Source of the DNA: Octopus vulgaris
Taxonomy: Eukaryota
Reading direction: 5' to 3'
Assembly (NCBI GenBank): GCA_951406725.2
Contig: OX597840.1
Location: forward strand, 12,648,001-12,712,000
DNA: 64,000 bases
Position 1 is the first letter of the stretch; each line of letters starts with the position of its first letter. The position numbers are program-made. Shown here piece by piece: positions 3,001 through 57,000 of this stretch.

Positions 3001-6000
3001 AATGCCACGCATCCTTTTCCAAGTTATATATATATATATATTTGTGTATGTGCGTGTGTGTGCGCGTGTGTACATATGTATATATATATATTTATATATG
3101 TGTGTGTTTGTGTGTATCAGATGTGCTTTTAGTTTGTCTGGAGCTACAGTAGATGGTATTTGTCCAAAGCGTTGTGCAGTGGTATTGAACCCAAAACCAT
3201 ACGATTGGGAAACAACCTTCTAAATTAAATAGCCATGCCAGCACTTATATATGAGTTACTCATCCAGAATCAGTCGTTGGCAATTTGTTATAAGATTTAT
3301 TTTATATTTTTAACTTCCTGGGTCTGAGATTAGAAGCAATTCCCATGGCCATTGCATACCTTTCTCAATTGGTGTGTTTCAAATCTAATGGCAAAATGTT
3401 ATCTGAAATTTCATCCGCCAGATTGAAATTTCCTCCAACCAAAATAGTTTAACTTTCTTCCTCAAACATTTTAAATTTCATTAAACACCAACAGTCAAAT
3501 CCAACACAATTCCACGTTCCATAAATAACAATATTAAGAAAACAGACATTTATATTTCTATATTTTAGCCAAGATTCATGCTATGTATGTTCCTCTTGAA
3601 GTTACAATGTTTTAGGAAAAGATAGGACCAGGAAGAGAATTCCAGAGAATCAAAACTCTTACAAGGAAGAATTGTTTGCTTTAAAACTTTTATACAATAT
3701 CACATGAACAAATGTATCATTCACCACATTTCTGAAATAACATTGAATATAATTAATTAAATGTATGCACGCAGTTTCTTTATAGAAATCTTCCTCGTTT
3801 TGTAATGAAGAAAAGATATTGGTCAGAAAATAGAACATGAAATCCAATACAAACTAATACTTGTCTTTTCTACATTTTACCATTAGTGTGAAATTTCATT
3901 CAATTGATACAGTTTAACTTTCTTCCTTGTACATTTTTACTTGCATTAAACACCAACAGCTAAATCCAACACAAGTTCACGTTCCATCAAGAACAATATT
4001 TACAAAACCAACTTTTACATTCACATACTTTAGTCAGGAACGTTTTGTCTAACTCAGAAATACAAACATGGCTGTTAAAGCACCTTGTGTTGTCATTGAC
4101 AATGGATCGTATACATGTAAAATTGGCCTTGGACGTAATCTTGAACCGAGCATTTTCATTCCTTCACATAGCGGTTATTGCAATGATCAGGTATGTTGAC
4201 TATATTTATATAAGTAATAGCAAATGATCCTTGTTTTTTAATGTCCACTTTTCCATGTTTGCATGGGCCAGGTAGAATTCTTCATGAGGGATATTCTATG
4301 CTGATACCTTTTATATCAGGCTATCCTTCGCCTTTTTCCAAATATCATACAGCTGATGAACATGAAGACCATTATAACTTGTAAAACTCAATCACGAAGA
4401 TACCTCTCCCAGTTGTAACTGCCAAGACTCTGAAGCCTATCCATTTGACCAGGCATATAAGATAACCTCCGTCATATACATGGCAGAAGTTTGAGATAAG
4501 CTCCAAGACAAATCCATTGAAAAAAGAATTACATTGGTTTATGTGAAGGAGAATCTAAGAGACGTTATGCAAACCACCTATTTTCTTTCTGGCACATCAA
4601 ATAATGTAATGCAACTAAGTTGGCTAGCCATGTATGGAATTTGAAGAGCAGCTCCACAGCACATACAATTAAGTGGAGAATTGTGGAGAAATCCAAGCCA
4701 TACATTAATGGACATAAGAAATGCAACTTCTCCATAGCAGAAAAGTTTCGTATGCTTTTTAGATCCAGATCTGCCTAATTCCAGATCTGAAATTTTTAGT
4801 AGGTGTAGAAACACGGACAGGTTTCTTTTATTGAATTTAAGGGCACCACCAGCTCCATATTGAGTTGCTGTCTCACAGACTTTGACATACTTTCTGTTAT
4901 TTTGTTCTAAACCAGTTGTGTTTAATGAGCTTTCTGAAATTAGGGAGGACGAATATTTTAGTTTTCTTCACTTTGTTTCTTTTTTTGTCTCATTTTTTTT
5001 TACATCACCTTTCTTCTTGTGTTTCCTTATTTTCTCACTGTCCAGCGTCCTTGATTTTAATATATATATATATATATATATATATATATATATATATATA
5101 TATATATAATGCATAAAGAGAATTTGGAAGATTGCTTTAAGATACATTGTGCCTAGTTCATTTATCGTAAAAGCATAGAAGTATCAATTGATACATACAT
5201 GCATACATACATATTATATATATATATATATATATATATATATATATATATATATATATATATATATATATATATATATATATATATATATATATATATA
5301 TATATATATATATATATATATATACTGTTAAAAGTCAGATTGAATCTTGCTTGATTGAATCAGCCAAACTGGCGCATAATGGGAAAATACTTTGAATTAA
5401 ATTTACCCTGAAATGTTAATACAAACGGAATGAAACAATTTTCATGTAAACTGACCAAATGGCTTTTGAGATATTAGAGGTTTTCGGGATATAAATACCG
5501 AAATCGTGGCATAATGGGAAAATGTTTCGAAAATAATCTTCATCCTGAAATGGAAGAAACTCTTATCTATCTGTTAGACACTGTGAGTTGATGAGAACAA
5601 AATATAATTTTTTTTTTACAATAAATATTTCTACTTTGACTTTTGTTAAACGTAATATCTTAATCCTTTAATAGTATTTCTAACTGAATGTGATTTCAAA
5701 AATGTAAGCATTTGTACTGTAAGTATTTATATTTTAGCTTTCTTTAAACAGAAAATATTTTAATGATTTTTAAGGTTATTTTCCGAAATTATAAAAATTT
5801 TTTTGGCTTATAAAAAAGATATTCACAACTGCTTGTGGTGTTTCTCCCTCAGTATAAAAGTGTCTCGTCAGGTGATGTTATAAGAGGTATATCTTTAAAT
5901 AAACTCTGTTTTGCTTAGTTTTGATACAGCATGTTGTTGTTGACCATGTTGTTGGGCAGGAATAGCTAGGGACACATTCCATTGCAATGATGATGATGAT

Positions 6001-54000: not shown

Positions 54001-57000
54001 AGCGCTTCTAGAACTCAGTTTGCTGACGTGGGTGGGTCTTCTCAAGAAGCTCATATCATCAGACATCTCAGTCCATTGTCATTTCCTCCATGAGGTCCAA
54101 CGTCCTGAGATCGGTCCTTACCCCCTTCATCCCACGTCTTTCCGGGTCTCCCTCTTCTGCAGATACCATCCACTTTCAGTGATCACCACTTCTTTATGCA
54201 GCTGGCCTCATTCATACACATCACATCTCCAAACCAACGGAGTCTTCTCTCTTGCATGCTACATTTGATTCCTCTTATGCCCAACTTTTCTCTTTGCACT
54301 TTGTCGTACATGTGCACTGATGTTGCACATCCAACAGAGCATACTATCTTCATTTCTTTCCAGTCTATGCACATCTTCTGCACTGAGAGCCCATGTCTCA
54401 CTTCCAAGGAGTATAGGCCATTCACACACAAGCATCATACAGTCTACTTTTCACTCTGAGGGAGACTCCTTTTATTGCTGTTAAATACTCCTAATAACTA
54501 TTTTGTGATGGAATGTTCTGAATAGAGTTTCAATAAGGAAAACACTTTTCATCCTTACTTCAAACTTTAACAGAAAGATATCAAAGGATTAATCATGGGA
54601 TATTATAGTATTTAATATGGGATATTGTAGGATTAGTTATCAGAATTCCAGAATTCATGTAATTCTTTCTATAATTCCTGTATTTTTGTATTTCAGGGTG
54701 AAGTGATTGGAAATGAACTCAAAAACTATAATGCTAAAATTAAATCTGGATCCAGTACAAGTGTTCTAAACTTGAAGCATCCGATTGAACGTGGTGTCAT
54801 TACCAACTGGGATGATATGGAGAAGATTTGGTTGCATGCATTCAAAGAGTTGAAAGTTGCACCTACAGAAAGCTCTGTCTTGTTGACTGAGGCTGTTTTT
54901 AACCCCAAGGACAACAGAGAAAAGATGGCCGAAATTATGTTTGAAAAGTTTAACACTCATGCATTATGTATTGCTGATCAGGCTTCACTGTCCCTTTTGG
55001 CTTCTGGTCGTATCACAGGTATGTCTGTGGATGTAGGTCATGGCATCACCCAAATTGTCCCTGTCTATAAAGGGTCAGTTAAACGAGAAGCTGCTGTCCA
55101 GTGGGAGTTTGGTGGTGTGGACATGACAGATTACCTTACGAGTATGTTGACTGAACGTGGTTATTCCTTTGACAGTCCTTCTCAGACAGAAACTGTCCGT
55201 AACATCAAAGAGAAGTGTTGTTATGTTGCTCTAGACTTTGAACAGGAAATGCAGACTGCAGCCTCTGAGAAATATAAATTACCTGACAAGCAAGTCATTA
55301 CCATTGGCAATGAACGATTCCGTACCCCGGAACTTCTGTTCCAGCCAAGTTTAATTCATGAGGGATCTGAGGGTATTCATGTAAGAATTCGTGATTCAAT
55401 CATCAAATGTAATAGGTCGATTAAAATGCCCCAATTTCAGAAAATTGTATTGTCCGGTGGTTCGACAACATTCAGAGGCTTTGCCAAGCGCCTAAGAAAA
55501 GAAATGAGTTCCATTCTGGCACCTGCAACGATATTTCAGATTATTGATCATGGAGAACTTAAATACGCTACATGGCGTGGTGGTGCTGCATTGGCTAGTT
55601 TGTCTATCTTTAAAGATAGGTGTATTAGCAGAGAAGAATATAATGAACATGGCTCAAATATTCTCGATAAAAAATATATGTAATATGTATGTGTCATTGA
55701 TATATATATATATATGATATAATATAATATAAATCCAGTTCTGTGTGTTTGTGTGTGTGTGTGGATGTGCGTAAAAGATTATAACGGCTGTATTGTTCAA
55801 CTGATTTTACTCCAAAGTGGGAACAGATATTACTTATGTTCCACGGATGGACCAAGATTCCAAGCATTTCCAAATACAAAATTAGACAATACAACGCTGC
55901 ACTAAAGATAATATCATTTGGAGTCACAAAAATTTAACTGAGTCAGGATTCATGCAATCTTTCAGGATCCAAAGTCAGATTTATCATCGGATTGCCTATC
56001 TACTACCTCTGTCCAATGAATCACCAAAATCAGCCTTTCATTGTTTATAATCTGTACATGTTCTTTGGTAGCTTATTTCGTAACCAAAGAACATACTATA
56101 CGTTTACTTATATTATTAATCAACGATTTTTTAATTGATGGTGGGTGATTACTATTAACATTTATATAACTAAGGTTTTCATTAAGTTTATGATATGGTT
56201 GTGTTTTACCCGTAATTAGATTAAAATTACCATCTAAATAATCAACATTAAAATTCTCATTATATATAGTAATACTTAAACCATACCTTTTAAAGAAACT
56301 ATAAAGTTCTTTCTTATAAAATTCTAGGCTACAATTAGTGCAATTCTTAGTAATTAATGAAAGGTCATCCCTATATAAACCACCCTCTATTTTTAAATCT
56401 TTAATTGAAGTTCAGATAATAGATAAATACCTACCAAATCCATAGCTTGTGCAGAATCGGGTGCCCCCATAGTTGTATCAAAATGATCCCTAGTATCCTT
56501 CCAAGCCCATAATTTATTTTTGTATCTAATAAACAATTTCCTAGCCATTTTAATAATATCAACCTCTTCAAAAGTCATTATCACTTTATTCATATATATA
56601 TATATGTATGTATATATATGTATATATATATATATCTTTATATATATATATATATATATATATATATATATATATATATATATATGTATATATATATGGC
56701 AAGTGTCAAGGCCAGTGTTAGTTATTTATTACTTAACTTTCAGATCCTCTGTGTCAATCACCAGGGGATATTAAGGAACACCTACTAGCCCTTTCAATAT
56801 CAATCCACTTGAGACGACCCCCTGCTTCTCTGTTAAAATCTTTCTATTTTAAAGTGAGTTCCATTAAAAACTTCCATGTTAATGTATGTTCAAAACACTA
56901 GTTATTTTACTAAATTCGTATTTTGAAAATAATTAATTTCAACGAAACCATTTTGCTTTATCAGAAATATGGTAACAAAAGTGATAATAAAAATAAGGAA

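Follow-up and report, generated by a model that had tools for sequence, protein, structure and literature searches.

A tandem array of strongly diverged actin-like genes with intact reading frames in Octopus vulgaris

Introduction

Actin is among the slowest-evolving proteins. A row of actin-like genes that are far diverged in sequence, and at the same time read open from start to stop, therefore raises a question: are they working members of a family on an evolutionary course of its own, or copies on the way to decay? We investigated such a locus in a 64,000-nucleotide (nt) stretch of Octopus vulgaris DNA (NCBI GenBank assembly GCA_951406725.2, contig OX597840.1, positions 12,648,001 to 12,712,000 of the forward strand), hereafter the window, in which positions are counted from its first letter. 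It contains three genes, designated G1, G2 and G3, each coding for an actin-like protein of 369 amino acids (aa). The reading that we consider reasonably probable is that they constitute a functional, rapidly diversifying family of non-canonical actins arranged in a tandem array. The original prediction for this DNA had described three intact, strongly divergent actin-like genes and interpreted them as an expanding, lineage-specific non-canonical family: the observation was confirmed and the interpretation is partly supported.

To our knowledge, fast-evolving actin paralogues of this kind have so far been documented mainly in Drosophila and mammals. Young, fast paralogues show which surfaces of actin may change while the fold survives, and an intron-bearing tandem array in a further animal lineage would mean that innovation of this kind arose there independently.

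Results

Three intact two-exon genes in an A-B-A array

All searches, alignments and counts were run exon by exon, for each gene separately. On the forward strand we verified three two-exon genes with 123 + 987 nt of coding sequence each, including their predicted coordinates, ATG starts, GT..AG introns and TAA stops. Their features, with expectation values (E) from Pfam and the top match in the Protein Data Bank (PDB), are:

4068..4190, + strand, G1 exon 1: 41 codons, type A N-terminus; ATG to CAG/GTATGT; weak Pfam Actin match, E 2.6e-4
4191..12640, + strand, G1 intron: 8450 nt, phase 0, GT..AG; antisense retroelement inside
12641..13627, + strand, G1 exon 2: 328 codons and TAA; Pfam Actin E 6.3e-92; top PDB match 4efh_A, 358 bits
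33835..33957, + strand, G2 exon 1: 41 codons, type B N-terminus, the most actin-like of the three; CAG/GTACGT; Pfam Actin E 4e-8
33958..37491, + strand, G2 intron: 3534 nt; retroelement of G1 and G3 absent; ~770 nt insertion of its own near the acceptor (self-blastn and divergence profile)
37492..38478, + strand, G2 exon 2: 328 codons and TAA; Pfam Actin E 1.3e-91; aa identity 88% to G1 and 91% to G3
46070..46192, + strand, G3 exon 1: 41 codons, type A; 85% aa identity to G1 exon 1
46193..54696, + strand, G3 intron: 8504 nt; insertion resembling a short interspersed element (SINE) 14 nt past the donor, and antisense retroelement
54697..55683, + strand, G3 exon 2: 328 codons and TAA; Pfam Actin E 6.5e-90

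Every exon 1 begins with ATG and ends in CAG followed by a GTAYGT donor; every exon 2 is preceded by a pyrimidine-rich TTTCAG acceptor, runs for 328 codons and closes with TAA, with the intron in phase 0. Start, donor, acceptor and stop are intact in 3/3 copies, and, as had been predicted, the reading frames carry no internal stop and show no length difference between copies. The window contains no N. Searches with tblastn using all six exon products recovered exactly three copies of exon 1 and three of exon 2, and no additional actin fragment in the window. An extra exon candidate at 4229-4324, shortly past the start of the G1 intron and with counterparts at the other genes, gave a weak exon-1-like tblastn match (E 0.48); it was not actin-like and was judged to be a chance match.

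The genes fall into two types, with G1 and G3 as type A and G2 as type B. Because 626-25244 is colinear with 42856-64000, we place G1 and G3 each in its own copy of a ~42 kb tandem unit:

626..25244, unstranded, tandem unit copy A: the part pairable in the window; colinear by blastn with 42856-64000 at 92-98%
42856..64000, unstranded, tandem unit copy B: ends at the window edge; colinear by blastn with copy A

As G2 is located inside the first unit copy, the array reads A-B-A and is not a series of three equal repeats. Judging from this offset, a fourth, G2-like gene would be expected ~12 kb beyond the right end of the window. Self-comparison thus bears out the predicted expansion of the family by local duplication, in the form of the ~42 kb tandem unit and an older internal copy.

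The genes are closest to conventional actin

The exon-2 products match the Pfam Actin profile (PF00022) over positions 55-408/409 of 410, with E of 6e-92, 1e-91 and 7e-90. The 41-aa exon-1 products match it weakly at positions 2-37 (E 4e-8 to 2e-3), that of G2 above the Pfam cut-off of 27 bits (32.7) and those of G1 and G3 below it. This match over most of their length places the proteins in the Actin family. ESM Atlas matches were generic actin clusters only, assigned to PF00022, with no clue to taxon or subfamily.

At the level of architecture, exon 1 corresponds residue for residue to actin residues 1-41 and exon 2 to residues 42-375. The 369 aa had been predicted to differ from the 375-aa actin by small deletions only, and this holds: residue 91 and residues 233-237 are absent, and there is a compensating +1/-1 in exon 2 around actin residues 319-326. 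The proteins are otherwise colinear with the whole of actin, without large insertions. Their single intron lies exactly between codons 41 and 42, which we take to be an old and widespread actin intron position, although our literature search found no source for it.

With the G1 exon-2 product we obtained 164 distinct PDB matches at E up to 1e-5, the best 60 of which are all conventional actins (344-358 bits). The top match is Acanthamoeba actin-1 (4efh_A), with query residues 18-326 aligned to chain residues 59-373; a hand count of the HMMER midline gives 175/309 aligned residues identical (57%). The anticipated strong divergence from conventional actin hence amounts to ~57% identity over residues 59-373, and identity is lower in the N-terminal 58 residues. 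The exon-1 product of G2 aligns without gaps to actin 1-39, with 20/39 identical residues by hand count. The near-invariant sequence of conventional actins is not retained at the DNase-I loop (D-loop), H73, G15, the 154-161 phosphate loop or the acidic N-terminus.

A length close to that of actin and an identity to actin in the fifties are also within what we take to be the range of Arp1 (centractin), which raises the alternative that these genes are orthologues of a canonical actin-related protein (Arp). Arp1 of dynactin is an actin-length, conserved, single-copy protein that forms a short actin-like filament. No Arp chain is found among the best 60 of the 164 PDB matches of G1 exon 2, and for the G2 exon-1 product Arp1 first appears at rank 52 (20.6-21.1 bits), behind 51 actin rows of up to 28 bits; as far as PDB matches go, the proteins are no closer to any one Arp subfamily than to actin. 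Moreover, the copies are 8-12% apart from one another in exon 2 and as much as 44% apart in exon 1, a fast divergence unlike that of the canonical Arps, which are presumably slow to evolve. We regard orthology with a canonical Arp as extremely improbable, and the comparisons support a placement of the genes closest to conventional actin and not to an Arp.

Reading frames are kept open

We estimated the number of insertions and deletions (indels) expected in the coding sequence from the aligned non-coding DNA, counting only those in a non-repetitive context. Across the three-gene tree 6.5 are expected and none is observed (P 0.0015). A first estimate (P 0.003-0.018 per pair) was too generous, as it had included simple-repeat indels, and was replaced by this one. 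Random placement of the exon-2 substitutions left all three copies free of stops with a probability of 0.07 (20,000 simulations), and the two probabilities multiply to ~1e-4. The adjacent transposon open reading frames (ORFs), by comparison, are broken, as had been noted: the antisense retroelement ORF of the same duplicated unit runs for 404 codons in the G3 intron and is split into 237 + 269 codons in the G1 intron. These results support the view that the intact frames are more than luck, since neutral decay should have broken them.

Coding sequence diverges at least as fast as its surroundings

The exon-2 products share 88-92% aa identity; the exon-1 products of G1 and G3 share 85%, and that of G2 only 56-59% with the other two. 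Between copies, exon 1 has Nei-Gojobori ratios of non-synonymous to synonymous divergence (dN/dS) of 1.0-1.7, and exon 2 has ratios of 1.42, 0.84 and 1.83. Over the three-gene tree, 51 non-synonymous and 12 synonymous changes fall in exon 2 (dN/dS 1.15, not distinguishable from 1, p 0.75), a ratio that gives no sign of amino acids having been under purifying selection after the copies parted. We compared this with the aligned non-coding DNA of each pair:

G1-G2: coding sequence 7.7%, aligned non-coding 4.3%, p 1e-5
G1-G3: coding sequence 4.3%, aligned non-coding 2.85% (580/20,324), p 0.008
G2-G3: coding sequence 6.1%, aligned non-coding 5.5%, p 0.44

The coding sequence is diverging at least as fast as the adjacent non-coding DNA, and significantly faster in two of the three pairs. 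With dN at or above the local non-coding divergence and the ORFs maintained, the genes show the rapid evolution that characterizes non-canonical Arps. CpG decay was considered as a cause of the faster exon 2 and rejected, as the excess remains when CpG transitions are left out (p 0.002, 0.05 and 0.034).

The excess is not spread evenly. Along the G1-G2 alignment, divergence runs as follows:

Upstream -368..-69: 5.0%
Upstream -68..-1: 20%
Exon 1: 26%
5' part of the intron: 12-15%
Last 953 nt of the intron: 1.7-3.1%
Exon 2 nt 1-60: 18.3%
Exon 2 nt 61-600: 2.5-3.0%
Exon 2 nt 601-987: 7.0%
3' flank: 1.0%

The locus is a patchwork in which some blocks are homogenised and others strongly diverged. 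The spike over exon 2 nt 1-60 starts at the splice acceptor and comprises 10 non-synonymous changes and one synonymous change (p 2e-6 against the intron). In each of the three pairs, nt 601-987, the last third of exon 2, are more diverged than the 3' flank (p 1e-5, 2e-4 and 4e-3). We read the profile as the outcome of an old A/B duplication, ~12-15% apart where it was left untouched, that was later largely homogenised by gene conversion, apart from stretches in which coding differences have been kept or renewed. In exon 2 as a whole, nucleotide differences number 35 for G2-G3, 41 for G1-G3 and 53 for G1-G2.

Replacements cluster at the D-loop and the barbed-end cleft

We numbered residues by the HMMER register of the PDB alignments for exon 1 and exon 2. 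Among the three copies, 20/41 positions vary in exon 1 and 46/328 in exon 2, with replacements accumulating in the N-terminal exon, the D-loop and the barbed-end cleft. The consulted parts of two structural papers assign Y143, A144, G146, T148, G168, I341, I345, L346, L349, T351 and M355 to this cleft, which lies between subdomains 1 and 3, and give it as the main binding site of actin-binding proteins and as a longitudinal filament contact (PMC5314930, PMC11296705). Part of the first of these also sets the D-loop at residues 39-51 and pairs residues 41-45 with 166-169 and 375, 322-325 with 243-245, and 286-289 with 202-204 (PMC5314930).

Variation affects six of the 11 cleft residues (143, 148, 341, 345, 351 and 355), compared to 40 of the 316 remaining exon-2 positions (p 0.0015, or 0.004 when stratified by region). 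The longitudinal-contact set, likewise defined from the literature, varies at 15/39 positions against 31/288 others (p 4e-5), and the enrichment persists once the D-loop is removed (12/29 against 34/298, p 1.3e-4). Positions T148 and R177, which we take to be targets of bacterial actin-ADP-ribosylating toxins, are also variable among the copies.

Relative to actin, the kept residues include D11, S14, K18, Q137, D154 (N in G2), G156, G158, K213, E214, G301, G302 and K336. By our textbook understanding of their roles, these presumably comprise most of the nucleotide-contacting residues of actin. Replaced are G15 (Y/H), H73 (R), S155 (V), D157 (H), H161 (Q) and Y169 (S), along with the plug (266-270), W356 (C) and C374 (Y). 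The N-terminus has fewer acidic residues than actin, and residues 42-58, the D-loop region, lie outside the reported HMMER alignment.

Discussion

Alternative explanations

Several observations weigh against a functional, diversifying family. A dN/dS near 1, as on the three-gene tree, is also the pattern of dead genes; coding divergence of G2-G3 is not above non-coding (p 0.44); and the strict indel test carries little weight when confined to G1-G3 (0 observed, 2.7 expected, P 0.069). Some changes look damaging, namely D154N in G2 and arginine at cleft positions 341 and 355 in G3. The contact-residue sets, while taken from the literature, were picked for testing after the data had been seen, and AlphaFold2 on a three-row exon-2 alignment returned an unusable model (mean predicted local distance difference test score 33, predicted template modelling score 0.28). 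Synonymous divergence is also high, with a proportion of synonymous differences (pS) of 0.26 in exon 1 and 0.07 in the last third of exon 2 in G1. The dN/dS, the radical replacements and the weak indel result for G1-G3 would all be expected of recently dead, neutrally drifting actin pseudogenes in which a stop or frameshift is yet to come. Such genes, however, would have had to escape every indel and every stop against a joint probability of ~1e-4 and keep all start, splice and stop signals in all three copies, while the reverse-transcriptase ORF of the same duplicated unit did break. Neutral drift also fits poorly with the unevenness of the divergence, in which coding spikes stand beside quiet introns and flanks and the replacements focus on defined interface residues. 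We consider pseudogenes unlikely.

Because synonymous sites are raised too, conversion from unseen, distant family members is a live alternative: the genes would be functional, and the excess coding divergence would have come in by patchy ectopic conversion from members outside the window, possibly spliced copies. Synonymous and non-synonymous differences do rise together, both in exon 1 (G1-G2 pS 0.26, and an equal proportion of non-synonymous differences, pN, of 0.26) and in nt 601-987 of G1 (pS 0.072, pN 0.057-0.070), which this alternative fits at least as well as positive selection does. The order of the exon-2 distances contradicts the duplication order given by the 42 kb unit, the G1-G2 profile is clearly mosaic, and the G2-specific block takes in exon 1 and exon 2 nt 1-60 while sparing the 3' part of the intervening intron. 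On the other side, the differences in the D-loop spike are 10/11 non-synonymous, tblastn found no donor copy in the window, and conversion alone leaves unexplained why the retained differences occupy cleft and contact residues; we hold it to be possible rather than probable. A further alternative concerns the array itself, in that G1 and G3 could be two haplotypes of one locus placed in tandem by the assembler, the true array having one A and one B gene and the differences between G1 and G3 being allelic. Colinearity over >20 kb with 2.85% mismatch, many small indels and one SINE presence/absence could equally separate haplotypes in a very heterozygous animal, but the sequence is continuous through G1, G2 and G3 with neither an N nor a gap at the unit junction or close to it, and G2 is independent proof of local duplication in the family. 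An assembly artefact of this sort appears improbable.

A model for the family

Under the favored reading of a functional, diversifying family, we propose an origin from a conventional actin gene by DNA-level duplication, because the genes are colinear with actin and keep the intron between codons 41 and 42. A and B genes would have come to alternate inside the ~42 kb unit, itself then duplicated, and gene conversion would have brought large parts of the locus down to 1-3% divergence. Selection would hold the reading frames open while replacements build up at or above the local neutral rate, with a focus on the N-terminal 61 residues including the D-loop and on the subdomain 1/3 cleft. In actin, subunits contact each other longitudinally through the D-loop on one side and the cleft on the other, and the cleft is in addition the main docking site of actin-binding proteins. 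Going by the kept and replaced residues, the product is predicted to be a folded, actin-like protein that retains nucleotide binding, with hydrolysis chemistry, longitudinal and lateral polymer contacts and the partner-binding cleft all altered relative to actin. Since chemistry and interfaces have changed, it might act as a specialised subunit or partner-binding module and not as bulk cytoskeletal actin, and would be under diversifying selection. Our leading guess for its role is one in the male germline, by analogy to the non-canonical Arps of flies and mammals.

More specific proposals can be put forward in two forms, and we rate them as very unlikely. In one, A and B would be matched, co-diversifying interfaces of a private polymer or an ordered A/B co-polymer, because the two types alternate and are most unlike each other in the D-loop and in the cleft into which the D-loop of the following subunit fits; if true, such a polymer would be insulated from the conventional actin of the cell. 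In the other, the genes would code for resistant or decoy actins deployed in host-pathogen conflict, because variation also falls on T148 and R177.

Comparison with known actin-family paralogues

The products resemble conventional actin in their whole-length Pfam match, their colinearity over 1-375, their best PDB matches and the many nucleotide-site residues kept. They differ in their ~57% identity, where conventional actins are nearly invariant, and in that copies 2-5% apart in DNA are already 8-12% apart in exon-2 residues.

The closest parallels in mode of evolution are the non-canonical Arps of flies. As described in the consulted parts of PMC8291977 and PMC7038667, Drosophila Arp53D and the obscura-group D-ActL1-3 and Arp2D are lineage-restricted paralogues of an Arp or of actin, young, fast-evolving and mostly expressed in the male germline; they show positive selection, with variable residues across all four subdomains. 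The same sources, in those parts, present Arp2D as an intronless retroduplicate and Arp53D as bearing a 40-aa N-terminal extension. The octopus genes share with them the rapid, ORF-preserving evolution of actin-family paralogues. Unlike them, they keep an intron, lack an extension, lie in a tandem array shaped by conversion and concentrate their change on the D-loop and cleft. Orthology between the two sets is not expected. The mammalian testis proteins ACTL7A/B, ACTRT and ACTL8 are likewise divergent actin-family members, with mainly germline use being the mammalian feature. ACTL7A and ACTL7B both map to 9q31.3 and both are intronless, according to part of one report (PMC6642428). By description, the only level at which we compared them, the two-exon genes in a recent tandem array seen here are unlike ACTL7A/B.

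Mollusc actin families do expand in tandem, and the members described in the consulted part of one study are conventional (PMC5440852). Our literature search found no divergent actin-like genes in cephalopods or other molluscs, which is weak evidence, as automated annotations and supplementary files lay outside it. The genetic route taken here would be segmental duplication with gene conversion instead of retroduplication, and the locus yields hypotheses on polymerisation and partner specificity. Even if the genes turned out to be unexpressed, they would present an unusual survival of reading frames without visible amino-acid constraint.

Flanking sequences and mobile elements

A three-way alignment identified an upstream region common to all three genes, with a putative promoter role:

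3700..4067, + strand: upstream region of G1
33480-33834, + strand: upstream region of G2
45700-46069, + strand: upstream region of G3

It includes a CTTTAG/TCAGGAAC motif at 4038-4044, 24 nt before the ATG of G1 and G3; the G2 counterpart has one change and lies nearer to the ATG. Introns in the 5' untranslated region (UTR) are common in actin genes, and the motif could be a candidate acceptor of such an intron. Downstream of the genes, the first ~400 nt 3' of the stops (13628-14027, 38479-38879 and 55684-56069) are less diverged between copies than any other part of the locus (0.5-1.0%). They could be a 3' UTR under constraint or, alternatively, have been converted very recently. No AATAAA or ATTAAA occurs until 537-821 nt downstream of the stop codons.

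No Rfam match (0) and no ARAGORN tRNA (0) was found in the window. Of 50 stop-to-stop ORFs of at least 110 codons, 20 were scanned against Pfam, the remaining 30 being the three actin exon-2 frames and 27 unscanned ones. Two of the 20 matched (RVT_1/PHD) and 18 had no match, so that no other recognisable gene was seen in the unit among the scanned ORFs. Both matching ORFs belong to an antisense retroelement present in the G1 and G3 introns and absent from G2:

6651-9777, - strand: retroelement in the G1 intron; reverse-transcriptase and PHD-finger matches
6769-7482, - strand: retroelement ORF piece in the G1 intron, 237 codons
8140-8949, - strand: retroelement ORF piece in the G1 intron, 269 codons
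48981-52094, - strand: retroelement in the G3 intron; reverse-transcriptase and PHD-finger matches
49003-50214, - strand: retroelement ORF in the G3 intron, 404 codons; RVT_1 E 5.7e-26, PHD just under its cut-off

The matches of the 237-codon ORF are sub-threshold (RVT_1 26.1 bits, cut-off 29.6; PHD 23.6 bits, cut-off 24). GC-rich 62-nt tandem repeats stand at one end of the retroelement (6165-6379 and 48465-48621).

In the G2 intron, the insertion of ~770 nt (36711-37477) has an internal direct repeat and ends 14-40 nt before the exon-2 acceptor, which would place the branch point in or at the edge of the inserted DNA.

A SINE-like repeat of ~400 bp is present in at least eight copies with 84-92% identity and carries an internal microsatellite:

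19294-19705, 22988-23391, 23720-24130, 58309-58738, 61564-61999 and 62476-62892: SINE-like copies
26814-27238 and 46276-46585, - strand: SINE-like copies
~46207-46575: SINE-like insertion in the G3 intron, 14 nt past the exon-1 donor, absent from G1

One end of the repeat resembles what we take to be a tRNA-derived head, with no match in ARAGORN or Rfam, and the repeat as a whole seems to resemble an abundant octopus SINE, which would be in line with the cephalopod suggested in the original prediction. The insertion in G3 leaves the donor consensus unaltered; because it is absent from G1, it would be younger than the 42 kb duplication, or else a haplotype difference. The head of the repeat also recurs as tandem arrays of a 177-179 nt unit, at 22638-23158 in unit copy A (3.0 copies) and at 61392-61746 in unit copy B (2.0 copies).

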